From: Chiloscyllium plagiosum
Lineage: Eukaryota
DNA length: 64,000 nt
Direction: 5' to 3'
NCBI RefSeq assembly: GCF_004010195.1
Contig: NC_057754.1
Span: forward strand, 55,771 to 119,770
Numbering within the stretch: the stretch's first letter is position 1; each line of letters starts with the position of its first letter. Positions 14,758 to 62,581 of this stretch are shown here, in pieces. A program made the position numbers and the translations under genes. Below the pieces are notes generated by a model that searched no databases, was not told the origin of the DNA, and was given only the letters and a program-made list of their open reading frames with translations.

Positions 14758-14787
14758 TTACAATGTGGCATCGGGCTCCTGCAAATC
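14758..14787 (-). CDS. PPM1A/B-like phosphatase, terminal coding exon (DLQEPDATL*)
   Basis: Strong acceptor ttgttttgttcttggttctttag, phase 0, 9 codons + TAA. A short terminal exon as in PPM1A and the short PPM1B isoform. Total CDS 1164 nt = 387 aa. Confidence 0.75.
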   Translation of the reverse strand, partial: DLQEPDATL

Positions 14788-14919
14788 CTAAAGAACCAAG
14801 AACAAAACAAATCAAATCAAACTGAACAAAGTGATGATTAAACTATACACAATGCACAAACCTATGCACTGATGTGTTGGTTTCCCCCTTCATTGATGAT
14901 GGGCATATTTGTGCAGCCT

Positions 14920-16065
14920 CCTCCTCCAATGAGTTTTTTAATTGTCCACCACCATCGACCATCCAACACTGGATGTGGTAGGACTGCAGAGCTTAGATCT
15001 GATCCACTGGTTGTGGGATTTGTTAGCTCTGTCTATCACTTGCTGCTTCTGTTGTTTTGCATGCAAGTAGTCCTGTTTGGTAGCTTCACCAGGTTGACAT
15101 CCCACTTTTAGGTATGCCTAGTGGTACTCTTGGCATGCCGTCCTGCACTTTCCATTGAACCAGGGTTGATTCCCTGGCTTGATGGTAATGGCTGAGTGGA
15201 GAATATGCCAGGCCATGAAGTTAGATTGTGTTGGGAGTATAATTCTACTGCTGTTGATAGCCCACAGTATCTCATTGATGCCAAGTCTTGAATCCCTCAA
15301 TCTGTTTGCCACAAAACACGATGGAGGGTATTCTCAATATGAAGGCAGCACTTTGTCTCCACATGGACTGTGTGGTGATCACTTTTACTGATACTCTCAT
15401 GCCCTGTTTCGCAGCTATGTCCTTTAGGACCTGACCAGCTCGATCAGTTGTACTGCTGCCAAGGCACTCTTGGTGAAATGCCTCACCCAGAGGACATTCT
15501 GGTCCTTGCCACTCTCAGTGCTTCCTCCAAGTGTTGTTCAACATGAAGCAGTACTGAGTCATCAGCCGAAGGAGGATGGTACGTGGTATTCTGCAGGAGG
15601 TTTCCCTGCCCATGTTTGATGTGAAGACTTGTGACCTCATGCAGTTAGAAGTCAATGTAGAGGACCCGCAGGGCAACTGTATGCTACTGTGCTCTGCTGG
15701 GACTGTTTTGTCAGTGAGAGTGGTGATGGTACTATCAGGGACATTGTCCGCAAGGTTTGATTCCATGAATATAACTATATTACACTGCTGCTTGACTAGT
15801 CTGTGTGACAGCTCTTCCAATGTTGGCACTAACTCCCAGATGTTAGTATGAAATCCTTTGCAGAACAGAAAGGACTGTTCTTGCTCTTGTCATTTCTGAT
15901 GCCCTGATCAATGCATATTGTCTGTCTTGTTTCATTCCTTTTTTGAGACTTTTTAATGATTGATACAACTGAGTGACTTGCTCAGTCATTTCAGAGGATA
16001 GTTAAGAGTCAACCTCATTGCAGTGGCTCAGAAGTCACACGCAGGCCAGACCAGGTAAGGACAGA
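14920..16065 (-). mobile_element. Degenerate non-LTR retrotransposon fragments (endonuclease region)
   Basis: Peptides ITIKPGNQPWFN and LEELSHRLVKQQCNIVIFMES, typical of LINE ORF2 remnants. Confidence 0.65.
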
Positions 16066-16203
16066 GCAAGTCACAATATCATGGTACCATTACCTCTTTT
16101 CTGTTCCTGCCATGGACAGAGACAGAACTAGGTAATCTGTAATGGGGCAAAAAGACATCTCCTACCCATATACAAACGTCATCAGTTATTTGTAAATATT
16201 CAC

Positions 16204-16258
16204 CTCATCAGTGCTTGTAGGGGCCAGCCGATTGTAAACTGATTCGATTACATTCCGT
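16204..16258 (-). CDS. PPM1A/B-like phosphatase, coding exon 5
   Basis: (K)RNVIESVYNRLAPTSTDE resembles PPM1A/B KRNVIEAVYNRLNP. Acceptor ttctctcag, donor GAG|GTGAAT. 55 nt. Confidence 0.92.
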
Positions 16259-16399
16259 CTGAGAGAACAAACATCAAAAAAAACTTATTTCAACAAAGTG
16301 TTTCTGAATCAGAAATAATGCAGAAGAAGCAAGTGATCAGTAACTCTATCAGAGTCACAGGTTCTCACTCCATAATCCCACAGCAACATAAAGCTACAA

Positions 16400-16945
16400 A
16401 GTCAGCGCCGCAGTGTCAGAGGGTCAGTACTGAGGGGGCACTGCACTGTCGTAGGGTCAGCACCACAGTGTCAGAGCGTCAGTGCTGAGGGAGCACCACA
16501 CTGTCGGAGGGTCAGTGCTGAGGCAGTGGCGCACTGTCAGAGGGTCAGCAGTGAGGGAGTGCCGCACTGTCGGAGGGTCAGTGCTGAGGGAGCACCACAC
16601 TGTCGGAGGGTCAGTGCTGAGGGAGTGCCGCACTGTCGGAGGGTCAGTGCTGAGGGAGCAGCACACTGTCGGAGGATCAGTGCTGAGGGAGTGCCGCACT
16701 GTCGGAGGGTCAGCAGTGAGGGAGTGCCGCACTGTCGGAGGGTCAGTGCTGAGGGAGTGCCGCACTGTCAGAGGGTCAGTGCTGAGGGAGCGCCAAACTG
16801 TTGGAGGGTCAGCATCACAGTGTCAGATGGTCAACACTGAGGGAGTGCCTGTCGGAGGGTCAGCACTGTACAGTCATAGGGTCAGTGCTGAGTGGAGTAC
16901 CCACACAGTTGGAGGGTCAGTGCTGAGGGACCGTGCACTTTCAGA
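16400..16945 (+). repeat. 33-bp minisatellite array (in PPM1-like intron)
   Basis: Same unit as 8165-8740. Confidence 0.95.
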
Positions 16946-17075
16946 GGATTAATACTCGATCACCACTCTGTCAGTCATTGTGTTCGCTGGTGGGGGCTAT
17001 CATGGGTGGTGTTACTGTCTGGGACAAAGGGGGTGGGGGCGGTAAAGAGACGCAGACACTCTGAGGGCTCCGTAC

Positions 17076-17187
17076 TTGCTGATGAGGCCTCCTCCAGGTG
17101 GCAGGTTGGGAATGTTCTCGATGATCAGTGTATGCATTATGTCCAGTAACCCCAGAGGAGCATCCAGGCCAGACGTGGTCACCAACT
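17076..17187 (-). CDS. PPM1A/B-like phosphatase, coding exon 4 (C-terminal helical domain)
   Basis: Manual translation (E)LVTTSGLDAPLGLLDIMHTLIIENIPNLPPGGGLIS(K). Strong polypyrimidine tract + ttgcag; donor AA|GTACGG. 112 nt. Confidence 0.92.
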
Positions 17188-17404
17188 CTGCAAGGAAAGA
17201 ACAAAAAATACTGTGAACATCTTAGAAACAAATATAAAATGTTTGTGTTCATGAAGAGCTGAAATGAAGAAAGGGTGTGAAGAAGCAACATAATGTGGCC
17301 CACTCTGGTCAAGGATCAGGCTGTTCCTCTCGGAGATGAGGGAGACTTGAACTGGAGCTGAGGAATCAGCCAGCGAAGAAAGGGGCAGCTCCCAGCCTCA
17401 ATAT

Positions 17405-18170
17405 TTTGTTTCTATTTACTCAAAGGACATGGGGGGGGTCATTGACTGGGCCAACATTTATTTCCCATCCCTAACTGCCACATGAGAAGGTGGTGATGAG
17501 CTGCTTTCTTGAACCACTGCAGTCCATGTGCTGTCGGGGTACTCACAATGCCGTTAGGGAGGGAGTTCCAGGATTTTGTAGGAATGGTAATATATTTCCA
17601 AGTCAGGATTGTGAGTGGCTTGGATGAGAACTTGCAGATAGTGGTGTTTCCGTGTATCTGCTGCCCTTATCCTTTGAGATGGAAATGGTCATGGGTTTGG
17701 AAGGTAGAATCTATAGATGCTTGGTTAATGTCTGCAGTGTATCTTGTAAATAGTACTGCTGCTTGTGAGGGAGTGAATGTTTGTGGATATGATGCCAATC
17801 AAAATAGCTAAGTATAACTCTAATCAGTAGAGAATTTGCCCCCTGCTTCCCAGTGATTCCAGTTTTGTTCAGGGTCCTTGGTGCCCTACTCAGTCAAACG
17901 TGGCCTTGATTTCAAGGGCTGTCAATCTCACTTCAACTCTGAATTTTAGCTCTTTTGTCCATTTTCGAACCGAGGCTGTAATGAGGTCAGGAGCTGAATG
18001 GCCCTGGCAGAACCCAAACTGGGCATCACTGAGCAGGTGCTGCTTGATAGCACTGTTGATGACACCTTCCATCACGTTACTGATGGTTAAGAGTGGACTG
18101 ATTGTTCTGCTTTTTGTGTAAAGGGCATACCTGGGCAAAATTTCCACATTGTCAGCTAGGTGCCCAGTAT
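17405..18170 (-). mobile_element. LINE fragment (RT region and 3' end)
   Basis: ISPLLTISNVMEGVIN...AQFGFCQGHSAPDL peptide. Confidence 0.75.
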
Positions 18171-18449
18171 TGTTAAATTACAGATTGCAGTGAAACATTA
18201 AGATGACAAGGAAAGATCAGCTTTATTCCCTGACTGGATTTCCCGGTAATTTACAGCAGGGACTCTCTTATAAGGTGGAGTTTAGAATGAGGACCACAAG
18301 GTAAAATGTCCCAGGTTTAAATCCACCCCCAACACTGTCTTGAGGTCCAGGGGATTAAATAGAATACAGTCCATCACTGTGACAAATCTCACTCTTTGAA
18401 TGATCACACAAGATCACAGTCAATATAGGGGTAACTGACACAGCCTCTA

Positions 18450-19206
18450 GTCTGTAATGTTAAAATATTAAATTGTACTGTCTCTCTGGACAGGAATGTA
18501 ATTTTAAATGATTAAACTGTACTTTCTCCAAGAAGCTGAACATTCTGGAAGTGGGTGGGGGTGATATTCTGTCTCACAGATAGCATGCAGGAATGTGGAT
18601 GACTTTCCATTGAAATCCACACTTCATCTGGGCAGCCATTTACTACTATTTTACTGCTATTATCAAATTGAACTCTCATTTAGTCCCTTCCATTCAGAAA
18701 TGCTTTCATAGCCATTCTCCAGCCAATCAAATTCGTTTGCATGATCATTCCCTGATACCGAAGTATATCACACCAACATTGTCCGGAGAAATAGTGGAGC
18801 CAGAACTCATTTGCAGGGCTGCCCCGAAGTGAGGACATATCACACCTACATTGATTGTCTCGGGGAATAAAGGAGTCAGGAAATCATCTACACGATGATT
18901 CCCCAGGATTAGGGCATTTACATTATCTCTGAAGATGACCTCATCCTACCATTGTACCTGAGGTAACATGTGGTTATTGGGGAGAGGGGGGTTGACTAGA
19001 GTACCTGTGAGCATTATTAACTGACTTGTACAAAGGGGATGTATTTCCTTAGTTTGGGGCCTCTTTTGACTCGACTTCGCACACCTGCAAAGAGGGTCAA
19101 AGGGGTCACCTAGCTTGTACAGGCTTTAATAAACTTTAACTGTTTGCAGAAGTTAGTGTGTGTGAATTGCATCTTGTGCTTGAAACCTCGGGAAAAGAAC
19201 CTAACA
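18450..19206 (+). mobile_element. Possible solo LTR
   Basis: Internal direct repeats (tatcacacc-acattg), TATA-like tacaaagggg, AATAAA at 19128-19133, ends ...ctaaca. 5' end and TSD not found. Confidence 0.3.
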
Positions 19207-19302
19207 AGGCAATTCCCTCATCAATAGCTAAGATCTTTGAAGGTTTAACATGAAAGTGTCAGTCTCAAAAGGGCTCAGCCCAGCCTGCTTACAGCCTCTG
19301 AC

Positions 19303-19420
19303 CTTTCACTCGTGCTTCCAGGTATCTGTCAAGCTCAGCCTCCCTCTGTTTTGCTTCCTCCGAAGGTCTTGGGGCGTTCTCAAAGCACACCAACTCGATG
19401 CTTATGTTGTCCCGGCTGCC
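19303..19420 (-). CDS. PPM1A/B-like phosphatase, coding exon 3
   Basis: [39 protein letters not shown]. Acceptor tatgcag, donor G|GTCAGA. 118 nt, phase 0 to 1. Confidence 0.93.
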
Positions 19421-19839
19421 CTGCATAAGATGAACACAAACAGGAGCCCTGAGTTCAACTAGCCTAAAGCACATCATTTCAATACCAAACTAGCAATTCA
19501 AAACATCACATGCACAAGACTAACAATAACATGCATTTCAAAAACACCTTGCAACATCTCAGAACACTGCAAAGATCTCTACCAGCAAATGAACACAATG
19601 TACACACATGAAAAGAACCCACAAGGAAACTGATTAATGAGGGAAGAAAAGACCAAAAGAACTGCACATTCTGGAAATCAGAGACAAAAACAGAAATTGC
19701 TGGAAAAGCTCAGCAGGTTTTGCAGCATCTGTGGAGAGAAAGCAGAGCTAACATTTCAGATCCAGTGACCCTTCATCAGAAATAATGCTGCTGGATCTGC
19801 TGAGTTTTTTCAGCAATTTCTGTTTTTGTTTCTGTTAAT

Positions 19840-20180
19840 GTGACATATCTTGAGAGATAAAGATTGGCCAAATTCTTCCAAGTGCAAGATCTTCTCCCAC
19901 CCAAAAAGAGGATAGACACAGCTTCAGTTTGATGTCCCAACAGAAGATAACGCCTCAGACAGGTGCAGCTCTCCCTCAGTGCAGACCCTATGAGAGTGTG
20001 GCATTCCCTTAGCACTGACACTCCGACATTACCCGCTCCCTCGGCACTGACCAGCCGTTGCAGCGCTCCCTCAGCACCAACCCTCCAAGAGTGCGGCACT
20101 CACTAAGCACTGACCCTCCGAGAGTGCAGTGCTCCCTCAGCACCAACCCTCCGACAGTGCGGCGCTCCCTCAGCGTTGAT
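19840..20180 (-). mobile_element. Deu-domain SINE remnant fused to a 33-bp array
   Basis: On minus, the array units run straight into ...gaggcgttatcttctgttgggacatcaaactgaag...agatct...ggccaatctttatctctcaa, resembling the DeuSINE core as recalled. Confidence 0.6.
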
Positions 20181-20544
20181 TCTCATGGCTGGTTGGTGGG
20201 ATGATTACTGAATGGCAGAACTAGTGTGAGGGGCTGAATGGTCTCCTCCTTATTTTTATCAGGGAAGCAGATAGCAACACACCCAAAGGAATGTCTCTTA
20301 TAATGGAGCCTCCAGTTCCCAGTGTCTCCACTCCTCCAGCCACTGTGTCAATGTCAGGATTGTACAATGTCTCCTGCTCTCAGATCCAGCCTCAGTGCTA
20401 TAATGTTGGCTCCTCCTCTCCATCTATTAATGCTAGCAGGTCCTGACAATAAATCTGCTGCAAAGTGCACAGTGAGGGGCCCAGATTGTGGGAATAGGAT
20501 TTGGCAAAGGGCCTGACTTGGTCACCTCACAATATCTGTCCATT

Positions 20545-21910
20545 GACTCACGGATGTTGGGTGTCACTGGCTAGGTTAGCATTTATTATCCACCCTTAAT
20601 TGCCCTTGAGATAAAAGTGGTGAGCAACCTTCTTGAACCACTGCAGTCCATGTGCTGTAACAGACCACAATGTCCCTTTGGGAAGGAATTCCAGGATTTT
20701 GACCTCGTGACATTGAAGGAACAATGATATATTTCCAAGTCAGGATGATGAATGGCTTGGAGGGGAACTTGCAAGGGGTGGTGTTGCCATGTATCTGACG
20801 CCCTTGTCCTTCTAAATGGAAGTGGTCATGGTTTGGAAGGTGCTGGCTGAGGATCTTCTGTGCATTTCTGCAAGGCATCTTGGAGATGGTACACACTGCT
20901 GTTAGTGAGAGTCAATGGTGGGGGAATGGATATTTGTGGATGTAGTCGAGAGTATGTTGCTAGAAAAGCACAGCAAATCAGGCAGTATCTGAGCAGCAGG
21001 AAAATTGATGTCTCGGGCTGGAGCCCTTTGTGGATGTGGTACCAATCAAGCGGGGGCTGCTTTTTCCCGGATGGTGTCAAACTTCTTCAGTGTTGTTGGA
21101 GCTGCACTCATCCAGACAAGTGGGAAGTATTCCATCACACTGCTGACTTGTGCCTTGTACGTGATGGACACTCCCCTTTAGGAAGTCAGGAGGTGAGTTA
21201 CTCATGGCAGGATTCCCAGCCTCTGACCTGCTGTTGTAGTCACTGTGTTCATATGGCTAATCCAGTTCCATTTCTGGTCAATGGTAACCCCCTGGATTTT
21301 TGTTGATAATGGGGAATTTTGTGATGGTAACACCATTGAATGTCAAGGGGCAGTGGTTGGATTGTCTCTTCTTGGTGATGGTCATAGCCTGGTGCAAATG
21401 TTACTGGCCACTTGTCAGCCAAATCTGGATACTGTCCAGGTTTTGCTGTATTTCCATATGGACTGCTTCAGAATCCGAGGAGGGGGCGAATGATGCTGAA
21501 CAATGTGCAATCATCAGCCAACATCCCCACTTCTGACCTTATGATGGAGGGAAAGGCTTTGATGAAGCAACTGAAGATGGTTGGGCCTAGGACACTACCC
21601 TGAGGAGCTCCTGAAGAGATGTCTACTGAAATGACTAATCTCCAACAACCATAACCATCTTCATATGTGCCAAGTATGACTCCAACCAGAAAGTTTTCCT
21701 CCTGATTCCTATTGATTTGGTTTTGCTCGGGCTCCTTGAGGCTACACTCAGTCAAAAGCAGTCTTAATGTCATAGGCTGTCACAATCACCTCACTTCTGG
21801 AAATCAGCTTTTTTGTCCATATTTGAACCAAGGCTGTAATGAGATCAGGAGCTGTGAGGCCCTGGCAGAACCCAAACTGGGCGATACTGAGCAGGTTATT
21901 ACTGATAAGA
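20545..21910 (-). mobile_element. LINE RT fragments and 3' end
   Basis: ISSGAPQGSVLGPTIFSCFI...GMLADDCTLF RT motifs. Confidence 0.8.
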
Positions 21911-22139
21911 TTCTGCTATGGAAATACCCAGGTAAATGACATCCATTAGTCATAGCTTTGACATTCTCTACAGTCTTTGAACTCAACTCAAAGTTCATTT
22001 CCACTGAACTCTTCATTACTTGAGTTATGCACAATTAATTCCCGCATTTGGCTTTATAGGAACAAATTTGCTGAAAAAAGTAGGGAAAATTTCAGCCTTA
22101 ATCCTAACAAGCTCTAATATTCCTCTCATCAATTCATAC

Positions 22140-22545
22140 CTGAGTGAGTCCGTGTATGTGTGGGAGCCCATACCCCAGTGAAAGTCTGTGTGTGAGAAAG
22201 CCCGTACCCCAGTGAGAATGTGTGTGTGTGAAAGCCCATACCCCACTGAGAGTCGGAGAGTGTGTGTATCTGTGTGCGGGACCCGTACCCCAGTGAGAGT
22301 CACTATGTGTGTGGCAACCCGTACCCTAGTGAGAGTCAGTGTGCGTGTGGCACCCTGTACCCCAGTGAGAGTCAGCGTGCATGTGGCACCCTGTACCCCA
22401 GTGACAGTCAGCATGTGCGTGGCACCCCATACCCCAGTGAGAGTCAGTGTCCATGTGGCACTCTGTACCCCAGTGAGTCAGCGTGCGTGTGGCAACCTGT
22501 AGCCCATTGAGAGTCAGTGTGTGTGTGGGACCTGCACACCAGTGA
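22140..22545. repeat. 36-bp minisatellite (cccagtgagagtcagtgtgcgtgtggcaccctgtac)
   Basis: About 10 tandem units in a PPM1-like intron. Confidence 0.9.
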
Positions 22546-22892
22546 GGCACAGGTTCAGTTTGAAGTCTGTTTTGATTTTTGAGCATCAGTGTTAAAATGT
22601 CTGCAGGAAGTCTCGCTCTGTAATCTCTGACTAAGGGCTGACCCTCAGTGAGAAATGGGGCCTGACCCCATCCATACTGATGTTGTAGATTCAGGAGCCT
22701 GCCCTGCACATTGTCAAGGGCTGTGTCAGACACTATTGAGCAGGAGCTGAAAGGGGACGGTGTGTGCTCTGCATGAATGGAAGTTTTCAATCAGCAGGGT
22801 GTCTGCAGAGAACTATGTGCTAGCAATACTGAGTGGAGTCAGGGCCCTTTCATCCCTGGATAGAAATCAGAGTGTCACTCTCTCGATCTTAC

Positions 22893-23482
22893 CTTATACA
22901 GGCAAGTGTCTGCTACTAGATTGCAAATCTGTTCCAGGTCATCAGTTAGCTCGAGTCTGGATCGGACAAAGGCGCACAGTTCCTCATTGCTCATTACATC
23001 CCAAATTCCATCGCAAGCCAAGATGACAAACTCATCATCCTGGGATCGCTCAATCACCATGACCTCTGGTTCTGGAGAGACCAGCTGCTCCGTGGGACCT
23101 TTCCCATGCACACACTTGTAGTCGTAATCCCCGAGTGCACGGGAAACAGCGAGTGAGCCATTGACCCGCTGAATCATGACACTGCCCCCTGCATTTTGGA
23201 TCCTTTCCTTCTCACGTGGGTTACATGGCTTGTGGTCCTCAGTGGAGAAATGCACAGACTGACCCCGCTGCAGGACACCCCGGGAGTCTCCACAGTTTAT
23301 AAAGTAGACGTGTGTGGGTGAGACCAGGAGAGCCACTGCTGTCGAGCCACTGCGATCCATGTCGTTGTTCCCTAGTTCTGAGTCATTTCGCATACGTTCA
23401 TCAATGTTCAGGAATCCAGTCCTAATGGCACGTTTCACACTCTGGACAGCTGCTTGTGAATCACTGCCACCATCGATCATCC
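22893..23482 (-). CDS. PPM1A/B-like phosphatase, coding exon 2 (catalytic core)
   Basis: Encodes [46 protein letters not shown]. Acceptor ttttgcag|GG completes Gly with exon 1; donor AAG|GTAAGA. 590 nt. Confidence 0.96.
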
Positions 23483-24347
23483 CTGCAAAATCCAGAGAAG
23501 GGGTCAGGCACAGTTCTGCAGAATTGTATCACCTTCTTTTATTCCTTCCCCTCTACCCAACCTTCTCCAGAAATATATTTGGGTGTCTCTAAATAAAATA
23601 ATGGGGAGCAAACACAACTTACTGCAGCAAAGGGTAAATTTGGCTCAAGTTGGTCACACTCTCAGCTCCAGAAGGGTTTACTCCAGGTTTCCATTGAACA
23701 GCCTTGGGTTGTCAGATAATCTTCCACTCGGAGTCAGAGGGTGTGAGGTTTTCTCAGCACACCCTCCACAAACACGAGCACAATCTCCTGGCCAAAAGCC
23801 CTGGAGCAATGTGGGTTGGGTGTTAGCGTGGAGGCCAATGAAGGTCAGAAAGAGTGAGGAGCAGGAGGCACTGACATGCTGCAGTGTTCAGGGCAGAGGG
23901 GGGAATGATGATGGTGGTGGTGGTCAAAGTTGGGTTGGGGGTCTGGCCAGGATAGAAAATGCAGTCTTGCTATGCCCAGACCTGAATGGCCTACTGTAAT
24001 TACTGTGGATCCATTCATTATCAATTTACTTGGAATTGAAAGGTAAGATCTCACATGCATAAAAAAAGTCATAAAGTTGAAACAGCTCAAGAGACCATTT
24101 CGCACACTGTACCAGTGCTAATCCACCATGAAGCAACCCATTCAGTCCAATTTCCTTGACCAGCTCATTGTTTATTTCCCACCAGCCAAGTCCACTGCTC
24201 TACTCTAGACTGTAAGTTTATTTTGATGAAACACCCATCCAATTTCTTTCTGAAGTAATTTACTTACTCAACTTCCATCACCCACAACAATGCTGTGGCC
24301 CACACCATTATGACTCACTGTATAAACAACATCTCTCTGTATTTCTC

Positions 24348-24692
24348 AAAGAACAAAGAAAATTTACAGCCCAGAAACAGGCCCTTTGGCCCTCCAAGCC
24401 TGAGCCGATTCAAATCCACTGTCTAGACCTGTCGCCCATTTCCTAAGTATCTGTATCCCTCTGCTCCCCACCTACTCATGCATCTGTCCAGATGCATCTT
24501 AAATGAATCTACTGTGCCTGTCTCTAATACCTCTGCTGGCAATGCGTTCCAGGCAACTAACACCCTCTGTGTAAAGTACTTGCTGCATGTATCCCCCTTA
24601 AACTTTTCACCTCTCACCTTGAAAGCGTGACCTCTCGTTATTGAATCCTTCACCCTTGTAAAAAGCTTATCTCTATCTACCTCTATTCTCAC
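24348..24692 (-). mobile_element. CR1 LINE 3' fragment
   Basis: TRGHAFKVRG...WNALPAEV peptide. Confidence 0.85.
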
Positions 24693-24934
24693 CTGAAACT
24701 AGAAATTTGTGTCCCCTCGTCTTTGAATCATCGAATGAGAACAGCTCACCACTGTCCACACAAACCAGTTATAATCTTGTACACCTTAATCAAATCTTTG
24801 TCAGTCTCCTTTGCCCAGGAAAATCCTGAACTCTTTGCTCCCTGAGCTGTGTGCTTTATTTTGCGCAGGGTTGGGTATGGTATATTATTAGCTAAGAAGG
24901 AGGGAGGATTTGATGTGTCCTATAAGAAGCTCAC

Positions 24935-25193
24935 CTTTGAACTCCTGGTTGCTGGTTATGTGCTGGAGGAGGTTCTTGGCACAATATTTGGCAACCCCTG
25001 ATCCTGCATGCCCATCATAGATGGCAAAAAAGGACCAGTTTTTCAGCTGGTCCTGTAACTCAGGCACAGCTGAGTGAGCATCCTCCATCTCCACGCGCCA
25101 GCCCTGCATGCTGCACAGCCCATAGCGAATCCCATTCCCTTCACCATGATCATTTTGTTTCTCTGTTTTGGGGTGGTCCAGAAATGCCCCCAT
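24935..25193 (-). CDS. PP2C-family Ser/Thr phosphatase (PPM1A/PPM1B-like), coding exon 1 (exon begins at 25207 with 14 nt of 5'UTR)
   Basis: Encodes [12 protein letters not shown]...[13 protein letters not shown]...[10 protein letters not shown], typical of PPM1A/B. Acceptor tttgcag (25208-25210), donor AG|GTGAG at 24934. 259 nt, ends phase 1. Confidence 0.95.
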
Positions 25194-27520: not shown

Positions 27521-27827
27521 GATAAAGGAATGAGGGCAAGGAGAGGGGTAAATGGGGATGAGGACAGGACTGGGGTGAGGGATCTGAGGGGAGGGGATGG
27601 CAGCCAGCAGGCTGAGAGAGAAAACTAGGGGGTGAGGGGCTAGATTTTGGAACGGGTGTAAGAACTGAAATAGTTTGGGCACAAGGGACCGAGCTTAAAC
27701 CACACCTTAAAAAGTTTCGCGGGGCTTTTGGAAGACGAAGGCCGGACTAAACAATAAATAGGAAGTTTGTTCAGAGCCCAGTTTCCACCTCCAGCCGGTC
27801 CTACCCTGACCCTTCTGATCTACTTAC

Positions 27828-28230
27828 CCCTGGAGGTGAGGAGCTAAAGACGAGCTGCGTTATTTCAGCTGCGAACTGTTTGTTGCCCTGCACATCCCCT
27901 TTTGCTGGTGCCTGTGAAATGCGGCTCTTACCCCCTCGGTGACCCTGTTCCGGGGCAGCTCGGAGCCGCTCCCCCCCCCCCCCCCNNNNNNNNNNNNNNN
28001 NNNNNNNNNNNNNNNNNNNNNNNNNNNNNNNNNNNNNNNNNNNNNNNNNNNNNNNNNNNNNNNNNNNNNNNNNNNNNNNNNNNNNAAAAAAAACCCCGAA
28101 AGAGAAAAACAGATAAATACCCGGATCGGGGCTGGAATGACATCACCGGCAACCAATAGGCAGCTGCCACGTCACCGCCCCGAAACATGAAACACACACA
28201 TTGGCAACATTGGATTCGGAAAGCGCGCCA
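27828..28230 (-). promoter_or_regulatory. Putative promoter and non-coding first exon of the PPM1-like gene
   Basis: Consensus donor GG|GTAAGT (acttac 27822-27827). CpG-rich unique sequence with CCAAT/ATTGG boxes (about 28153, 28200, 28209), TGACATCA (28138-28145) and CACGTCAC (28168-28175) CRE/ATF-like sites. Spans the assembly gap. Confidence 0.6.
27986..28085. other. Assembly gap (100 N) flanked by poly-C and poly-A runs
   Basis: Seen directly in the sequence. Confidence 1.
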
Positions 28231-45240: not shown

Positions 45241-45325
45241 ATGGAATCTCAGAACCAGTCTTCCCTCGTTACCTCGTCTGGAGAAAGCGGGGATGCAGCG
45301 GTTTCCTCTTCGGGAGTGTCTCTGG
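45241..45325 (+). CDS. RTN3: Reticulon-3 coding exon 1 (MESQNQSSLVTSSGESGDAAVSSSGVSL)
   Basis: Good Kozak context gcaacATGG, Ser-rich N-terminus, consensus donor G|GTGAGT in phase 1 that joins in frame to the downstream exons. GC box CCCCGCCC at 45081-45088. Confidence 0.7.
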
Positions 45326-45596: not shown

Positions 45597-46199
45597 ATGG
45601 AGAAACCATGGAAGTGTGGCGACTGTGGGAAAGGCTTCCATTTTCCGTCTGCCCTGGAGACTCATCGGCGCAGTCACACCGAGGAGAGGCCGTTCCCCTG
45701 CACCGACTGCAGGAAGGCCTTCAGACATTCCTGCCACCTGCTGACCCACCAGCGGGTCCACACGGGGGAGAGGCCCTTCAGCTGCACTGTGTGCGGGAAG
45801 GCCTTCAGCAAATCCTCCAGCTTGCTGACCCACCAGCGGGTCCACATGGGTGAGAGGGCATTCCCCTGCCCTGAATGCGGGAAGGTCTTTACCAGGCCTC
45901 TGCCCTGCTGAGGCACCGGCGGGTCCACAAGGGGGAGAAGCCCTACAGCTGCACTGTGTACGGGAAGCCCTTCAGCTTGCCCCAACTTGCTGGCCCACCA
46001 GCGGGTCCACACGGGGGAGAGGCCATTTCCTTGCCCTGAGTGTGGGAAGGCCTTTACCCAGGCCTCCAACCTGCTGAGGCACCGATGGGTCTACAGATGG
46101 GAGCGGCCCTTCAGCTGCCCTGAATGCGGGAAGGCCTTCACCCGCTCCTCCTACCTGCGGAGCCACCAGCAAGTTCACGTACCATCGCAGGGCGATTGA
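45597..46199 (+). pseudogene. C2H2 (Kruppel-type) zinc-finger gene, about 7 fingers, frameshifted
   Basis: MEKPWKCGDCGKGF...HTGERPF linkers. -1 frameshift near 45893 gives TGA at 45909-45911; a second shift near 45983 restores the frame. Cys to Tyr in finger 5, His to Tyr in finger 6. Confidence 0.85.
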
Positions 46200-48085
46200 A
46201 GGAATGACGGCCAAATGCCATTATCGACTGGACTATCAAACCATTTCTGGGGATTCCTGGGTTTGAATCCCGCCGTGGCAGCTAGTGGAATTGGAATATG
46301 GTCAGAAATCTGGAGTGAAACCATTGTCAGTGGGGTTGGGGTGGAAGAAATCCCCATCTGATTCACTCAGCTCCTTTTTAGGAAGGAAACTGTTGTTGTG
46401 GGAGAGGATTCACTCAGACATCCCAGCTGTCTCCTTTACCTAGTCTGGCCGACAGCAGTGTAGTTGACTCTACACTGCCCATCCAACTTCCTTGGATACA
46501 GGATACAGGTTGAAGTCCACAATCACTGTCCCCCCAACTCCTATCAATAATGACGTTTCCCCCCATGAGTTGGCGTTCTGTAACTCTCCTTTGCTCCGTT
46601 GTCGCTGACATTGGGGTGGCAGAGTATTCAAGGCGAGGTCTGCATTGTTGCCCCTGACACACTCCATCTCCTGCCACTCCTCTTTCAATAAATGAAGTGC
46701 CAGTGTTATCCGTGTTGATACACTCTGGACTGGACAGCCCCATCCCCAAAAAAGAGCATATCATATAGGTTGAAATTTCTGAAAAGTACTGAGGATGGGG
46801 CTTTGGTGGAGGTGTTAGTATTCAGATAATGCACCATTGGTCATTAGAATCTCTATCTACCTTGGTGGCTGGTTGTAGCATTTTCCACTGCATTATCTTG
46901 AAGAACTGCTGCGTTCTCCCTTGTGTCATGGCCACCCTCTCAAAAGAGGAGGTCTGGTAATTATCGTGTAGCTGTTTGTGGGAGCTTACTGCATGCAAAT
47001 AGACAGCATTTCCTATAGTACACTTCAAACCTATTTGAGTGAGGTAGTCTTTGGCTGTGAAATGTTTTGGATCACTGAGGTTGTGAAAGATGGTGTAAAT
47101 ATTTTCTGCAGGATAATCCCAGAGAAAAAAATGTCACTGGGGGTCAAAGTCTTGGCACTCCCTTTCTCACAACACTGGGGGCTACCTGTACCAAATGGAC
47201 TACAGCAGTTCACTCCCACTTTAGCGATGGGCAATAAATGCCCAGCCCAGCCAGACACGCCCACATCCCAGGACAAAAAAAAATCTTAAGTTTAAGATGT
47301 GAGTGACATGGGACGATGATTGAAAGGTACAATGGGCAGAGTTAAGGCCAAGACATTGAATATGTTCTGGGAGGGGTTAGGTTTTGTTCTTAGAGAAAAA
47401 GGGATTAAAGGGAATGGGAACACAGCAGGAACAGAGTTCAATGATCAGATTTATTTGGTGAAGCAGGCTCAAGGTCTACTCCTAATTTCTGTTTCTGTCC
47501 TCTTTCTGAGGAGGAGTGGGTGTGAAGGAGGCTTTGCCCTCCTTGGAAGACCCCTGCACTGTTCTCTTTTGCAATCCTGCTTCCTTTCTTCCTGACCAGA
47601 CATGCTGTTGAGGAGACAGTAGGTCCAAATAGGTTAGGACTGAGTGGGCTTTCTCATGCATCTTGTGCTCATACTGTCTTGCGAGCTTGCTTGATCTCTT
47701 GCATCAGCCGGTCAGGATATGAAAGAAGCAGCCAGGGGAACTATGTCACTGATAACAACTCGGGTTGCAACATCCAATGACCAGACACGGGACTACATAT
47801 TCACTTTGTTTGTGGTTTATTTTTTACCTCACTGACAGTGTGATTGTGACACTCAGCTGCTCGTGAACCGTTATACAGCTAACAGCTTTTGACACCCTGA
47901 TATTTACTTTCTGCCTTTTCCATCTTTTGGAATTGATGGACCTCAATCCCCAACCTGAGCTGCTAGTTTGATGGGGCACAGTGGTTTTCCTAAGTGTTTG
48001 TGGAATCTCACTCATAAGAAATGCATTGCACTATTACAATACAAACTAATTCACTGTAGTATTGTGATTCGTTGCAATATTTGAG

Positions 48086-49025: not shown

Positions 49026-49121
49026 CTGTGTCTAGGGGGTGGATTTGGGGGGGCAGGAGGTCATTTTTCAGCTGCAAAATGAAAGCATTACCTGTGATGC
49101 CTCCTGGAATCGAATTGCCAG

Positions 49122-52135: not shown

Positions 52136-52499
52136 GGCTGCATGAGGGCTTGAGAGCTCAGTGGAGCCTAGAGTCATTGTGATGATGGTCATGCCATCAC
52201 ACATTGGGAGTGTGCAGGCAGATAGGAAATTCATGTGCCTATGTAAAAGTCCCTTAAACACCCCTATCGTATCTGCCTCCACCACTACCCCTGGCAATGC
52301 ATTCCACACTACCATTCTGTAAAAACCCCGTCCTTAACATCTCCTTTGAAATTTCCCCTTCTTACCTCAAATGCAAACCCCCTCATTTTGAATATTTCAA
52401 TTCTGGGAAAAAGATTCTGAATGTCAACCCTATCTATCCCTCTCATAATTTTATAGACTTCTATTATCAGGTAGTCTAAAGAGAACCAGGCAGATCTTT

Positions 52500-54720: not shown

Positions 54721-55089
54721 AGCTAGGAAGGAAATGCCATCTTTCCTTGGTCTGGCCTAAATATGATTCTAGACCCACTGCAATGTGGTTGACTCTTAAC
54801 TGCTCTCTGTGCAATTAGGAATGGGCTATAAATGCTGGCACAGCCAGCAGTGCCCACATCTTGTGAATCAATAAAGAAAACATAAAACACATTGCTAAGT
54901 GCCCGTGATAGGGAGTGAATGTTTGTGGATGTGGTGCCAATCAAGTGGCCTGCTTTGTTCTGGATGGTGTCTGGCTTATCAAGTGTTGGAGCTGCATCCA
55001 TCCAGGCAAGTGGGAAGTATTCCATCACACTCCTTTGTGCTTTATAGATGGTGGGACAGGCTTTGAGGAGTCAGGAGGGGAGTTTACTT

Positions 55090-55368
55090 TTAGATTAGAT
55101 TCCCTACAGTGTGGAAACAGGCCCTTCGGCCCAACAAGTCCACACCAACCCTCTGAAGAGTAACCCACCCAGACCCATTTCCTTCTGACTAATGCACCTA
55201 ACACTATGGGCAATTTAGCATGGCCAATTCACCTGACCTGCATATCTTTGGACTGTGGGAGGAAACTAGAGCACCAGGAGGAAACCCACGCAGACACGGG
55301 GAGAATGTGCAAACTCCACACAGACAGTTGCCCAAGGATGGAATCGAACCTGGGTCCCTGGTGCTGTG
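55090..55368 (-). mobile_element. HE1-type SINE nested in a LINE fragment (54722-55520)
   Basis: (agatt)n tail and V-domain on the reverse strand. Confidence 0.85.
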
Positions 55369-56714
55369 GATAGTGGGGCATTCAGTGATGGTAATGTTAT
55401 TTAATATTAAGGGGTGATGGTTAGATTCTCCTTTTGGAGATGGTCAGTGCCTGGCTTTGTGTGATGCGAATATTACTTATCACCTTCAGCCTGGGTATTG
55501 TCTAGGTTTTACTGCATTTGGACTGGGTCTGTATTCACTTGTTATACAGTCTGAGGCATGACTTCATTGAAACTTATATAATCAAATGGCCCGACACGGT
55601 AGATGTAGTGAGCATGTTTCCCCAGATTGAGTCCAGAACCAGGTGGCATAATCTGAGGGATGAAATGAGGAACAATGGTGAGAAAATGTTTGGTACTCGG
55701 AGAATGATGAGAGAATGTTTGGTATTCTCTAGCCCAAAAACTGTGGAAGCTCAATCACTGAGAGTACATTCAATACCGAGATTGCTAGATTTCTGGAGAT
55801 TAATGATAGTAGGTGATATAAAGTGGCGTGGGTGGTTTTATCGATGATCAGTCATGAGTGGAGCAGGCTTGTGGGCCGAATGGCCTACTAATGTTCCTAT
55901 GTTTCTTCCAGGTGTGCATTTTCTAGACTCTCCAGCACAGATCAAATAATCTGACGTGGTGTGTCCCCAGACTATGGGATGGAGAGTGGCATCAGTGTAG
56001 TGTAGTGTATGGTATTGTGTGTGTCACTGTAGATGCATCGGAATGGAGGAGACTGGGAAACTGAAGTTCTCCATCTCTCTGAAACGATGGTGATTTCTTA
56101 TGGTGAATAAGATACTGTTTGGCAAGTGGTATTGGTCACCAGAGGTAACCAGGTTGAGGAAAATCGGGAAAAAGACCTAAGGGGGGGGAGATGAGAATGT
56201 TTTATTTGAGACAGCGAGTTGTTGTGATCTGGGATGCACTGCCTGAAAGGGCAGGGGGGAGCAGATTCAACAGGAACATTCAAAAGGAGGGGAATTGGAG
56301 AGATTTGCAGCGCTGGGGCAGGGAAGTGGACGAATTGGGAAGATCTTTCACAAAGGCAGTACAGGCACAGTGGGAGGAATAACCCTCCACCTTCTGTGTG
56401 GTTCTATATGATTTGATTATTTTTGAGAACAAGACATTTTTATACATGTACAACTCTGAACCAGGCCATTTGCTCCATTGGGTTGGTACTAGTGTCTATA
56501 GACTCCTTCACTGCAGTTATCTGCTTCCAGCTGATCATCTTGTTTCCTTGTTGGAACAATTGAACTGTTTACCTCTTCCACTTGCTCTGAGAATGGATTC
56601 CATGATGTAATGACTCCCTGCCTCTCCCAGCCCTGATGGGGGCATTTGGGAACTTGCTGAGATTTTGGAAGTGAGTACTTTCCGCCTCTAATCCCACCTG
56701 CTGGTTGTTAAATC

Positions 56715-57440
56715 CCAGAAACAGTCAGAATGCTGGTGAAATTCGGCAGGTCTGGCAGCATCAAGAGAGAGAAATAGTTAACATTTTGAGTCCAGCTTTA
56801 GGGCTGAACCTATTGAAAAATAGTAGGTTTGTGCTACTATCAGAGGGGTGGAGGAGGATTGAGGGGAACAGATAGAGAGGTGCCCAGAGAGAAAAGATAA
56901 AAGGGATTGTTAACTGTAATAGAGGAGTGCCATAGATGAAGAGTAGGTGTTAATAGCAGAAAATAGGTCAGCCCAACTGAGAGCAAACAAGAGACTGGGT
57001 TGGGGAGTGTGGAGTCAGAATGAAGGACAGTGATCATGTTGAACTCCGTGTTGAGTCCTGAAGGCTGTAAAGTGTCAAAATGAAAAATGAAGTGGTGTTT
57101 GCTCAGCTTGCATTCAGCCTCACTGAAACATAACAGCAAGCCCCAGGGTGGAAACATTTCCATGCAGGAGATGGTGTGCATAAATAACAAGCTACTGGAA
57201 GATTTAGGTCATTTCTAAGCACACGGAGGTGTGCTGCAAAGCAGTCACCCAGTCTGAGTTTGGCTTACCCAGTGTATAGGAGTCTGCTTTGTGAGTAATG
57301 AATACAGCTGACCAGATTGAAAGAAGTACAACTGAAATGCTGCCTCAGCTGGAAGATGTGTTTGGGGCCTTGGACGGTGAGGGGGTGTAAGTGAACGATC
57401 AAGTGTAACACCTTCTGTTATTGGATGGGAAGGTGCCTTT
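56715..57440 (-). mobile_element. Degenerate Penelope-like fragment
   Basis: KLSKHHFIFHFDTLQPSGLNTEF resembles the PLE GIY-YIG C-terminus. Confidence 0.65.
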
Positions 57441-57865
57441 CAATAAGTTCTGAATCCAATTAGCCTCAGAACTTATTGAGAGGCAGTAATCCCTGTGACT
57501 TTGAAAGGTATCTTGCTGAACTTGAGTGGAATAATACACTTTGGAGCATTACTGTCATCTGACCCATCCTCTGGCTCACCACGAGCAATGCCATGGAAGA
57601 TCAATGAGCCTAGGGAAATCAGGACATTGATGGTGAGAGTAGATGTTTCTAATGATTCAAAAGCAGAGGATAGGAGATGTTACAAGCTGTGCGGACAGTG
57701 TTAATGGCTATCTCTGAGCTTGTCTGTACTGGTTGGGGGGGGGGGGGTGATAATGAGGAGTCTGAGTATCTCAGTTGGGAAATGGGCAGAGGCAGGAGAC
57801 CCATTCTGTCACTGTGTTACAGATTCCCTCGGGGTCTAATTATCTGCTATTTTTATATTTTTCAG

Positions 57866-57910
57866 ATAATTTGCTTTCTTCTTCCTCTCAGCATATCTCT
57901 GTAACTGAAG
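57866..57910 (+). CDS. RTN3: RTN3 small exon 2, (D)NLLSSSSQHISVTE, with GC-AG donor
   Basis: Acceptor tttttatatttttcag; donor AAG|GCAAGT. 45 nt, phase 1-1. Resembles the mammalian RTN3 exon-2 peptide DSFVSSSSSQPVS as recalled. Confidence 0.75.
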
Positions 57911-59860
57911 GCAAGTTTAACCCTCTCTACCTTTACTCTCATTTCCCTATAACAGTGTTTATAGGTTTGTAAATTATAAAAATAGAATCTTCAATGTCAG
58001 TTTAGCCAGCTTATCACTGAGCCCAGGGCCTAGATTACCATCTGGAGTCAATCGTGAGGTATCTGCCCACTTTTGCCCCACCCTCTCTCCAACCTGTTTC
58101 CAGTTGAGGAGGGGGTGGTTAACCCTTGGATTGTGACTCTTGGGGGAGGTGGAGAGATTGACCGTGGAGATCTGGCCTGGAGTTAAGGCCCAGCCATTGA
58201 ATGCCCTGGGCGAACATGGAGGGATTGACCCCAACGGGTAATGCTGGCCTTTCTTTGGCCTTCCGCATGGGTAACAGCAGCGTGTCTCCTCATTCTGCTT
58301 CGTGACAATCCATTTTAGGATCATTTTATTTAATCTTTCTGTTAAAAATGGCCACATTTTCTCTTGAACACTGGATTATTAATTAACCAGGTACCAGCAC
58401 ATCAAACCCAAAAGAGCGAGGTGAGTGGAAAGGCAAATGGGCATGAACACAAGCTGATCATTATCAGTCTATGTTGGTAGACTGCAGCAGTTCAAGAAGG
58501 CAGCTCACAACCACCTTCTCAAGAGACATCTAGGGACGGGCAATAAAACTGACCCAGCCAGTGATACCCACATCCCACAAATAAATTTTTTAAAAGTTTC
58601 TAAATGCAATCTTTTAATCATACTTTAATGAATCTGCAAATTTATATTGAGACTGTGGCAGTGATTGGGAGTCGGTCCTGAATTGTTATGGTGCAGTGAG
58701 ACCATTCAGCCCCTCATGTCTGCATCAGCTATCTCAGTATTTTAATTTGATGCCAGTCTCCTCTGTTTTCCTGGTAACCCTGCACATTGCTTCTGTTTAA
58801 ATAATTGTCTAGCACCCTCTTGAATGGCTTGTCTGAACCAGCTATACTTCCAGGCCCTGACCCAACCACTGTGTCTGAGAAAACGTTCTCTCTTTTCAAT
58901 TTGCTGCTTTTGCAAATCACTTCCAACCTTATTGTGAAGTGATCAGGATTCAGAAGACAAGGGGGAGCAGTTTATCTCTCTATAGTTTCTGACCAAATTC
59001 CTTGTTGTTTTTTGAAAACTTCATCTAGTCTCCTCTTAGTTTTTCTTGCAGAGGAGAAGACAGTCTCCGTTTATCTCCAATCCATCCTCATCATTGAAGT
59101 GTCTCATCCCTGAAACCATTCTCCAATCTTTTCTGCTGTCTCTCCAGTGTATTTAGATTCTTCCTATAATGTGGTCCACAGAACCATAAATTCTATCTGA
59201 ATTCTAACCAGTGTCCTATATAAGTTCACTATAACCTCCCTCAGATCAAATTAAACACTGATCGCGAACCTACGCATGAAAATAATTGTCATTGAGTTTG
59301 AGGAGTCAGTTCCTAGACTCCGAATTGCTTGGCTTTATTTTTTTTTGTCTATTGCGATAATTAATAGGGCCCTTTCGAGGGGAATTGTCTTTATCCTGGT
59401 GTCTCAATGTAATGTTCTAGCATCTCTGGTTGAGGTGTGGGATTGTGGGAGGGAGTGGGGTTCAGAAGGTGAAGTTAAATGTATTTATTCAGTAGTGACA
59501 ATGCTCTTTCTAAAGGCAGAAGATTATCCAATAAGACCTATCCTTTTCTCTTTGAGTTGTAGTCTTTATGCCTATTACTGGCTGCAGATGTTGTCATATG
59601 TTTATGTTGAGTTTTCTGTTCCCTCTTTGTTTGCCATTTTTCTTCCTAACCACTCCATCTCGTAAGGAGGGGGTTGGTGAGGAGTGCATTTTGCTTGGTG
59701 CTGCATTGCTGTTGCTGATTATTTGTGAGGCAAGTCTCCTTCCATGCATGGCTGCTGAGATCGTTTCTGTTACCCTTGCATCCACATAGCATTGCATGCT
59801 GTGAGACTGGTTTGTCTGGTTTTTATGGTTTTCTGAATTTCTCTTGCTGTCTGCTCACAG

Positions 59861-62581
59861 AGAGATTGCAACTCCAAACGCTCCTCTCTGGTCACAGTCT
59901 GTCTGCACAACAGCCGAGCTGTGTGAGCGTTTCTGAGTCGATGGGGTCTTTCCAACCTTCTGCCCTTGGCTCTGTTGTGACATCTGACATGCTGTCAGGT
60001 CAAGGTGGATCTTCTGCCTTGATCCCTTCGTTGAAGAAGACTGCTCTGTCAGATACTGAGAAGGAATGTTTTGGATCTGCAGTCACTCAGGGAATGAGCA
60101 ACCTCTATGGGAATGATTCTGTAAATGACACAACCTTCAGGGGCTCTCAGCCTGGAGGAAGTGTCTTCAATAACTACAGTTGGATGAGCCAACCCGAGCT
60201 GGTGTTTGGGAAGCAGGAGTCTCAACGTGTATCGGAAGCAGTGGAGATTTGTCAAATTGAAAGAGTTCACCATGGGACTGGGGCAGTGCATGCTCCAGAG
60301 GAGCCAGCAAAAAGTGATCCTTCTTCAATTGATTCTTCACAAGAAGAAGATTCATTGGAAAGAATTAGTCCTGACTCTCCTTTCGAGGTCCTTGCTGAAA
60401 TGCAAGAGAAGGGACCTTGTGCTGAAGAGACACCAAAGTCATCGTTCATTGTGGATGAGCGCAGAGTGAATCTGAACCTGCCTCAGAAGCCTCTCCCAAT
60501 CACAGGAGGGATTAAGACTGATCCATTGAGTGAAGCAGTGTCCAAAAACAAAGCCGAAACAGTTGCTGCCATTGGACCAAAGTCTGATTTGAAGACAGGA
60601 GACCTTCCACAGGCTTTGCACTGCCCTCGAGTGGGTGACCAGCAGGAGATTCCTGATGGACAAAGCAACATTGCAGAAGGTGTCTTCAGGCCAAATGCCA
60701 CCACAGGAGGTGGGATGTCCACAGACATAGCTTCCAAAAGCTTTCACCCTTCTGTATGTGGATCAATGAGTAGACCACAGGATTTGATTTCTGGAGACCC
60801 AGTGTCTCGGCCGTTTGATAAAAGAAAGGTAGTCTGCGGTCTTGAAATGGACCTGGATCTTTCTGAGAGGATATTTCAGCCAGCACGTGGCCCTGGAACT
60901 GATGGACTCTCTCCTTATTCGTTGATCAAGATTACCCCAGATGAGGCTGTGAACCCTTCAGTGCAAATACCTACATCCACCAGTGCAGGCATCAAGATTC
61001 TGCCTGATGTTGGACATAGGTGTCCGATTGACCCTGTAAGTAGGAGCAGTGAGCCCTTAGCAGAGGTACCATCCAGAGACCCAATGAATGAGCCACAGCC
61101 TTTGAAGAAAGAAGCAAAGGAGATTTTCCCCAGTAAAGAAACTTGCCAACTCCCTGAAGATCCAACTTTAAGCTGGGGCAGCTCGCAATGTCCAACACTT
61201 GAAGGAACCACTGCCCTTGACCATGTTCTGTCTGCGAGATTGGAGACTGCAGAGGCAGATAGTTCCGGAGAATCGGATGACACTGTTATTGAAGATGTCA
61301 AATCCGGTCCAGTGGGGACCCTACTGTATAGGAAGGAGAAATCGGGTGATATAGGCACCACTGAGAAACTGGTTTGTGCTCCAGTATTAAATGTTAGGGA
61401 AAGCAGAGAGCAGGTGCTGAGTGACAGACAGAGAGAGTCTGTGAATCTTCAATCCACAGGCCCTGGAGGAGATAGAACACAGTCTGCAGAAACCAAAGAC
61501 CATCCAGCAGAAAGTCCAATACTGCCTGGAGCTTCACCTGGGCTTGGTCACAGTGGAGACATTGTGCTGGAGCAAATACCAATAACTTCACAAGAAGTGG
61601 TACCTTCAGATACTGGTGTTTCGCCTTTCCCATCTGCAGCTGCCAGTCACCAATTAGATATGCATATGTCTACAGAGGAAGGAACTAGCAAATGTGAGCC
61701 AAGATCCAGTTCTCCGATCTTGTCAACCTTATCTCATGTGGACCAATCACACTGGCACCCACCTGGCCTGTCTCCAACTGATCCTGCCACCACTCAGCTG
61801 TCAGCAGACTCTCCTGTCTCCGTTGACGGTGCTGATACTGAAGAGCTTTCTATGGTGGAAGGACCTTCTCCTTTACAAGAGATGATCTGGAGATCAGCAA
61901 TATCGCAAAGGGGCCACGTTCTCGGAGGAATGCAGCCTGCCCCAGTGGCAACAGCTCCACCCCAATCAATCATTGTCAAATCCACACCCATAGTCATTGA
62001 AACCCCTTCACTCATTGTCAAATCAACCTCTGGACCAGGAGGGGCCCTGGAGGGAGCGACCGAGGGAACAGAGAGGACCCTGGAGGGAGCGACCGAGGGA
62101 CCAGCAAAGGCGCCAGAGGGAGTTGCCACAGGAGCAGTGAGGGCCCAGGAGGGAGCAGGTGAGGGAGCAGCCAAGGCTTCAGATTCCATGTCACCATCTT
62201 CAGTGGAATTGACTGGAGTCCAACAACCAGCCATGAGGCAGGAAGTCACCAAACCCAGCCCTTCAGGAAGGAGGGACACACAGAATGATCTAAGAGCCAA
62301 AGATGGACAGAGCTTATTAGGGTCTGGTGACAGAGCCCAGCCCCAGTTAACCACAACTCCCCAGGCACTGAGCAAACTAACCCCCCAGCAAAACCCTGCC
62401 ATCAAGAAAACGGGAATAGTCAAAGGCACAGCCCTTTGTCTGGCCCAGCCCCTCGTGGACATGGCCCCTCCCAGTGATTCCAAAGTGAGACCAGAGCTGA
62501 AACCACAAACTGTCTTGGAGCCTGTGCAGATGGAAAGGCCTGTTGGTGGGGCAGCTTCTGATAGGCTGAGTAAAATGGCAG
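59861..62581 (+). CDS. RTN3: RTN3 large (RTN3L-specific) exon, 2721 nt, intrinsically disordered region
   Basis: Lies within the 963-aa ORF. Acceptor ctgctcacag (59860), donor GCAG|GTAAAA, phase 1-1. Contains RTN3-diagnostic motifs SPDSPFEVL (60367-60393) and DSSGESDDTVIED (61258-61296). Confidence 0.88.

Follow-up and report, generated by a model that had tools for sequence, protein, structure and literature searches.

A shark and ray phosphatase gene beside a likely RTN3, probable fourth ohnolog of PPM1A, PPM1B and PPM1N

Among the 20 human PP2C members counted in a passage of PMC11659304, only PPM1A (PP2C-alpha), PPM1B (PP2C-beta) and PPM1N come from the subfamily considered here. Catalysis and metal binding by PPM1A involve R33, E37, D38, D60, G61, H62, D239 and D282, as set out in part of PMC3730172, and a passage of PMC13325838 states that PPM1A and PPM1B are myristoylated at Gly2. 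Here we analyse 64,000 nucleotides of the shark Chiloscyllium plagiosum (the window; positions 55771-119770 of C45, a chromosome of 13.66 Mb), in which a further gene of this type, which we name PPM1X (X in the trees), is transcribed away from a reticulon (RTN) gene. An earlier note, made from the letters of this stretch, had proposed that the shark may keep a fourth copy from the two rounds of whole-genome duplication (2R). Our analysis supports that proposal, as PPM1X forms a fourth clade outside PPM1A, PPM1B and PPM1N and coexists with a PPM1N-type gene in the horn shark, and we regard it with considerable confidence as the fourth 2R ohnolog beside these three, seen here only in sharks and rays. 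Other cases are known in which sharks retain an ohnolog that bony vertebrates have lost.

PPM1X is an intact PP2C gene on the minus strand, with six coding exons that join to 1164 nt and encode 387 amino acids. As the earlier note had stated, the gene is complete: the frame is unbroken, the spliced product is identical to P0002, held by NCBI as 'protein phosphatase 1B-like [Chiloscyllium plagiosum]', and splicing is seen in RNA-type contigs. Pfam recognizes both the catalytic domain (PP2C, PF00481, E 6e-82) and the C-terminal helical domain that had been noticed (PP2C_C, PF07830, E 7e-27), and the protein aligns with residues 1-378 of human PPM1A (PDB 1A6Q, E 3e-174). Gly2 and the metal-binding motifs ED, DGH, DG and DN are likewise where they had been read (E37-D38, D60-G61-H62, D244-G245 and D287-N288); R33 and D152 are also present, and D244 and D287 correspond to D239 and D282 of PPM1A. 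Across all X rows that cover them, R33, E37, D38, D60, H62, D244 and D287 are invariant, G61 being present in P0002, and Gly2 is found in nine of ten rows, the tenth being truncated. We predict that PPM1X is a myristoylated Mg2+/Mn2+-dependent Ser/Thr phosphatase, its enzyme activity, myristoylation and substrates being extrapolated from PPM1A alone.

The protein is 91% identical to X of the horn shark and 79-85% to X of rays, compared with 69% to shark PPM1B, 65% to shark PPM1A and 56% to horn-shark PPM1N. With PPM1B (68-69%) it shares Gly2, the catalytic residues, the PP2C_C domain, the downstream intron positions and an SLC3A neighbour, but it has a separate clade and chromosome, an intron in codon 87 and a set of fixed residues of its own, and no long PPM1B-type tail was seen in X. 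PPM1A (65-69%) is similar in its catalytic residues, in the aligned span and in its divergent orientation to a reticulon, yet it has its own ortholog on chromosome C10 and tree tests reject the grouping of X with it. PPM1N resembles X in being fast-evolving and in having an SLC3A-type neighbour (for PPM1N, in one lizard fusion model); unlike X, it is extended at the N terminus and lacks a Gly2 start. At 17 positions the ten X rows share a fixed residue that occurs in at most one of 41 PPM1A, PPM1B, PPM1N and cyclostome rows. One of them, E292, lies five residues past the metal ligand D287, at a site where all 47 other aligned rows are hydrophobic.

Trees were built from rows hand-picked among the fetched proteins (57 for a quick tree, 26 for a careful tree and 19 once cyclostome and invertebrate rows had been taken out), the outgroup consisting of these cyclostome and invertebrate rows, with no named invertebrate chordate among them. 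In the quick tree, PPM1A, PPM1B, PPM1N and X each formed one clade with a support of 99-100 in the Shimodaira-Hasegawa-like approximate likelihood ratio test (SH-aLRT), and in the careful tree each of the four reached at least 100/99. There the PPM1A, PPM1B and PPM1N clades each contained shark and bony-vertebrate rows, and X stood outside all of them; it was also outside PPM1B in all free trees. With the 26 rows, the approximately unbiased (AU) test rejected X together with cartilaginous-fish PPM1N (p=7e-7) and with shark PPM1A (p=8e-5), as well as X inside the PPM1B of cartilaginous fishes (p=0.021) or of elasmobranchs (p=0.008); with 19 rows, X with shark PPM1B alone was rejected (p=0.027). 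Phylogeny excludes PPM1N and PPM1A well and PPM1B moderately. Of the placement that had been proposed for the 387-residue protein, the separate clade and the rejection of PPM1N and PPM1A hold, and exclusion from cartilaginous-fish PPM1B was obtained only in the presence of outgroups.

Three genome-wide searches (queries: an X exon, PF07830 and horn-shark PPM1N) recovered only three PPM1A/B-type loci in C. plagiosum, on C45 (PPM1X), C9 and C10. First-exon comparisons give 100% identity between the C10 locus and shark PPM1A P0494, and 99.6% between the C9 locus and shark PPM1B P0012; PPM1X is not the PPM1B of this genome, which sits on C9. In the horn shark Heterodontus, from which individual records of X and PPM1N, but not of PPM1A or PPM1B, were recovered, X (P0485, on a 27.5 Mb contig) occurs together with a PPM1N-type protein (P0343, on a 41.9 Mb contig) to which it is 56% identical, and X is therefore not PPM1N. 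A search with lizard PPM1N gave three cartilaginous-fish matches among the best 120 of 1939, from Callorhinchus, Scyliorhinus and Heterodontus, and no carpet-shark or ray PPM1N among the matches listed. All three proteins have the N-terminal extension found in lungfish, bichir, axolotl and teleost PPM1N.

Orthologs of X numbered five among the best 120 of 988 matches and six among the best 120 of 1909 (8000 candidates scored), with the score falling from 845 bits for full-length X to 654 bits for the best PPM1B. Cluster look-ups extended them to 13 named species of sharks and rays (two Chiloscyllium, Hemiscyllium, Stegostoma, Rhincodon, Cetorhinus, Carcharodon, Pristiophorus, Heterodontus, Mustelus, Mobula, Pristis and Hemitrygon), and the X clade comprises 17 of the 516 family proteins fetched (FastTree 1.0), 14 of them with names, all elasmobranch, and three without. 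The earlier note had foreseen automatic annotation as 'PPM1A/1B-like', and this is borne out by the 14 named records, every one of which reads 'PPM1B-like'. The protein is thus already annotated, under a misleading name, which sets an orthology trap in at least 13 sharks and rays; true shark PPM1N orthologs are in turn filed as 'PPM1A-like', 'PPM1A' or 'PPM1B-like'.

The genomic neighbourhood provides evidence of a different kind. On C45, an OTUB1 exon (1.6-1.9 kb) is followed by SLC3A2 (~41.5-49.2 kb), PPM1X, the reticulon, three Spin-doc frames, a DUSP10-like frame at 175 kb and an EHD gene at 3.47 Mb; these neighbours come from a codon-score screen of 196 kb, and the list is incomplete because only 30 frames and proteins were taken to Pfam. 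SLC3A2 is the next gene found downstream of PPM1X, on the same strand (113 bits to 4F2hc vs 36 to rBAT), and the exon beyond it is of OTUB1 type (120 bits vs 66 for OTUB2). Parts of the local order SLC3A2 <- PPM1X ... RTN -> recur at the other three paralogs: the PPM1-to-SLC3A tandem is found at PPM1B, PPM1N and PPM1X, the divergent PPM1/RTN pair at PPM1A and PPM1X in C. plagiosum, and we take human PPM1N to be divergent from RTN2 in the same manner. Same-strand adjacency is implied by public gene models that run bird PPM1B together with SLC3A1 and join an SLC3A-type frame to lizard PPM1N. Past PPM1B on C9 of C. plagiosum come an SLC3A2-like paralog (29.98 Mb) and then SLC3A1 (30.23 Mb). To human SLC3A2, the C45 gene scores 113 bits with an 88-residue query and the C9 paralog 57 bits with a 167-residue query; the two SLC3A2-type exons are only 44% identical, and the block was therefore not copied from C9 in sharks.

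More widely, a fourfold paralogous block is apparent, with reticulons on C45, C9, C10 and C41, EHD genes on C45, C41, C10 and C3, and SLC3A2-type and DUSP10-type pairs on C45 and C9. Comparison of the C45 EHD with PDB entries matched no EHD1 and is uninformative for its identity. A paralogon from the first and second duplication rounds (1R/2R), represented on human chromosomes 11 and 19 and including EHD and ATL, is described in a passage of PMC6298421, and part of PMC2211742 places OTX and SIX paralogs at 2p, 14q and 19q13. The subgenome that became microchromosomes underwent biased gene loss according to a passage of PMC8302630, and PPM1X resembles ohnologs kept on gnathostome microchromosomes after such loss (PMC8302630, PMC6298421) in its small chromosome, its membership of a loss-prone paralogon and its higher GC content at third codon positions (0.56 vs 0.40 and 0.44); the passages concerned in these two papers do not name the PPM1 family.

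Among other origins, X might be a PPM1B duplicate from the cartilaginous-fish stem that, introns included, was transferred to the RTN3 chromosome and underwent rapid evolution. PPM1B is indeed the closest paralog (69% vs 65% for PPM1A), X is seen in elasmobranchs only, and this nesting is tolerated by the outgroup-free tree, as detailed below, but it is rejected once outgroups are included. Moreover, the copy would have needed to land between SLC3A2 and the reticulon, oriented as at the other paralogs, and the adjoining SLC3A2 is no recent copy of the C9 paralog. Because a single-gene copy would need exactly this slot and orientation, we consider such a duplicate unlikely. Less likely still is a duplication older than or separate from 2R, for instance a tandem copy in an early vertebrate, in keeping with which X lies beside the invertebrate and cyclostome rows in the 26-row tree; that placement is unsupported (21/0 and 30/81) and involves long branches, and X stands alone, with no adjoining PPM1 copy and in a position that mirrors those of the other paralogs. 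Finally, X could itself be the PPM1N of sharks, the member otherwise missing from an assembly in which three family members were found. The divergent reticulon that we assume for human PPM1N would agree with this, and so would the PPM1N-type fragment P0183, whose apparent start is an intron located in the loop that also holds the codon-87 intron of X. We nevertheless hold it to be highly improbable, given the true PPM1N-type proteins with N-terminal extension in Heterodontus, Scyliorhinus and Callorhinchus, the presence of both genes in Heterodontus (unless a record is mislabelled) and the AU result; in addition, the chromosome that carries VASP and its own reticulon is C41, not C45, and shark PPM1N P0406 appears to be without the extra intron.

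Several observations nonetheless weigh against PPM1X being the fourth ohnolog. The pairing expected of the four ohnologs is ((A,N),(B,X)), and it was recovered weakly, at 65/11, in the 19-row tree, where X joins PPM1B and the support for PPM1B itself drops to 63/80; alternatives were not rejected. With 26 rows, X as sister to all PPM1B, all PPM1N or all PPM1A was allowed in each case (p=0.35, 0.27 and 0.40), and only one site favours each of X+A, X+B and X+N, so that this shape is not demonstrated. The X stem is long, at ~0.45 changes per column, and in the 19-row tree X with cartilaginous-fish PPM1B was not rejected (p=0.084); a PPM1B duplicate of cartilaginous fishes is thus not firmly excluded by phylogeny alone, and synteny carries that part of the argument. 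It should be noted that the synteny is matched to human 11q12-13 through map positions of RTN3, SLC3A2 and OTUB1 that we presume to be correct, and that the name RTN3 for the neighbour rests on a motif match, elimination and neighbouring genes. No X from Callorhinchus or any bony vertebrate occurred among the matches listed, and as X is found only in elasmobranchs, the clade itself dates only to the shark-ray ancestor; its absence elsewhere is no more than likely, since a diverged ortholog might rank below the matches listed or sit in a 50% cluster. Of the separate family loci expected in this genome by the earlier note, PPM1A (C10) and PPM1B (C9) were located, but PPM1N was not found by the genome-wide searches, and this assembly therefore does not display the full quartet. 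Nor did tblastn find PPM1N in 250 kb around the C41 reticulon (~15 kb N) or in a 150 kb stretch that lies upstream of VASP and takes in its start (~8 kb N); lineage loss and an assembly gap are both possible.

On balance we favour the fourth-ohnolog origin of PPM1X, for which the following course may be envisaged. An ancestral block in which SLC3A and PPM1 pointed one way and RTN the other (SLC3A <- PPM1, RTN ->) would have been copied four times, and elasmobranchs would have kept the phosphatase of the copy whose chromosome corresponds to human 11q12-13. The lineage leading to humans, and probably bony vertebrates as a whole, would have lost it. PPM1X would then have changed rapidly along its stem and acquired the extra intron. 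We tentatively extend this to a picture that is a real possibility rather than a probability: a jawed-vertebrate ancestor with four PPM1A-family phosphatases, all kept by the horn shark, with the RTN3-linked copy lost by bony vertebrates and PPM1N by carpet sharks in reciprocal fashion, and with a retained copy that fixed substitutions of its own on the stem, E292 among them, and may differ in substrate range. PPM1X would complete the quartet and reveal an ancient SLC3A-PPM1-RTN gene block. It reveals no new mechanism, and it offers a natural comparison for studying the divergence of substrate preference in a central signalling phosphatase present in four copies. A literature search that had most subscription papers outside its scope found no paper on PPM1X or its synteny; ohnolog tables in genome-paper supplements may list it.

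The transcript structure (Table 1) draws on three contig runs (X1, X3 and X5) that are presumed to be RNA, the spliced joints themselves being the evidence. All five coding junctions and the junction to the 5' exon are present in each of the three runs, a single contig sufficing in X1 and in X3 and two contigs being combined in X5, and raw RNA reads of run X19 contain three of the six. Run X5 shows six listed coding differences from the gene, five of them silent. The 5' exon has an observed/expected CpG ratio of 0.60 (0.21 in the spacer) and reaches at its upstream end an N gap at 27986-28085, with 105 more letters of contig 1 of run X1 unplaced. This gap is the only one in the window and coincides with the first exon and likely promoter of PPM1X.

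Table 1. Features of PPM1X and of the divergent reticulon gene, in window coordinates
Feature	Position	Strand	Remarks
PPM1X non-coding 5' exon	27824..27983	-	joint 25203/27824, GT-AG ends; runs X1, X3, X5, X19
PPM1X coding exon 1	24935..25193	-	aa 1-86; Gly2, R33, E37, D38, D60-G61-H62; ends at phase-1 intron in codon 87
PPM1X coding exon 2	22893..23482	-	aa 87-283; D152, D244-G245
PPM1X coding exon 3	19303..19420	-	D287-N288, lineage-specific E292; C-terminal helical domain begins
PPM1X coding exon 4	17076..17187	-	C-terminal domain, LPPGGGL
PPM1X coding exon 5	16204..16258	-	
PPM1X coding exon 6	14758..14787	-	includes stop codon; 3' untranslated region extends to at least 14410
Reticulon first coding exon (putative)	45241..45325	+	phase-1 donor; from sequence only; region of GC 0.57
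Large phase-1/phase-1 exon, long reticulon isoform	59861..62581	+	907 codons; putative boundaries from splice signals
SPDSPFEVL	60367..60393	+	resembles human RTN3 LC3-interacting region ESPFEVIID (aa 245-253)
SGESDDTVIED	61264..61296	+	motif in large reticulon exon

Introns after YK and between ASK and R lie at the same positions in PPM1X as in PPM1A and PPM1B of this genome, which rules out an origin as a retrocopy. The phase-1 intron in codon 87 is counted as extra because PPM1A and PPM1B have one exon there. It is unlikely to be a trait held in common with PPM1N, as judged from translations: shark PPM1N P0406 looks single-exon at this place, for which reason the gain in PPM1X was probably independent. 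For the PPM1N-type fragments P0183 and P0281-P0283, the apparent beginning is at an intron of this loop, possibly a parallel gain.

The reticulon gene lies on the plus strand and is divergent from PPM1X. The interval 14758..62581 delimited by the earlier note runs, as examined here, from the PPM1X stop codon to the donor of the large reticulon exon. The claim of a head-to-head arrangement stands as to divergent transcription; ~17 kb separate the PPM1X 5' exon from the putative reticulon start codon at 45241, and a compact, shared bidirectional promoter is therefore rejected. Of the motifs taken to mark RTN3, SPDSPFEVL and SGESDDTVIED do occur in one stop-free plus-strand frame of 965 codons, and the latter is, we assume, specific to RTN3. 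For the small Ser-rich exon 2 that had also been claimed, no convincing candidate emerged from two scans, one of which covered only part of the intron. The human RTN3 LC3-interacting region (LIR) is ESPFEVIID (a passage of PMC5517149); DSPFEVLAE of the shark reticulon matches it, the other five human LIRs being without a match. The 400-residue core of the large exon gave no second genomic match at E<1.

Reticulon-domain exons continue beyond the window (C45:126.0-129.3 kb, PF02453 on three exons); of the four reticulon loci in the genome, the other three lie on C9, C10 and C41. The C10 reticulon is 0.65 Mb from PPM1A and points away from it, C9 is the PPM1B chromosome, and C41 carries VASP, 3.3 Mb from its reticulon; a search in PDB returned only RTN4 fragments. 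By elimination and by the human synteny as we presume it, C10, C9, C41 and C45 would carry RTN1, RTN4, RTN2 and RTN3, so that, together with the LIR match and the neighbours, the identification of the gene beside PPM1X as RTN3 is upheld as likely. Among 29 matches to PF02263, none was on C45, where ATL3 might have been looked for beside the reticulon; in human we take ATL3 to adjoin RTN3.

Just inside the putative first reticulon intron is a C2H2 zinc-finger array (45597-46200, plus strand) interrupted by frameshifts or stops. Three frames with a Spin-doc zinc finger (PF18658) follow closely downstream of the reticulon, on the minus strand (L021:6446-6949, L022:1772-2752 and L023:8000-8548); a transposon origin is possible, and human RTN3 is presumably followed by ZFTA and SPINDOC. 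The DUSP10-like phosphatase exon (C45:175112-175624, or L025:6112-6624, minus strand) shares 75% identity with the true DUSP10, which is on C9, and may mark a second retained ohnolog; we know of no DUSP10-like counterpart in human 11q13. The SLC3A2-like paralog between PPM1B and SLC3A1 (C9:29978744-29979244, plus strand) is possibly an extra SLC3A ohnolog, and the lizard model P0127 hints at another SLC3A-type gene beside PPM1N. Lastly, the PPM1B exons at C9:29.79-29.94 Mb change strand, the first two coding exons being on the minus strand and the next on the plus strand ~150 kb away, probably as a result of an assembly inversion.

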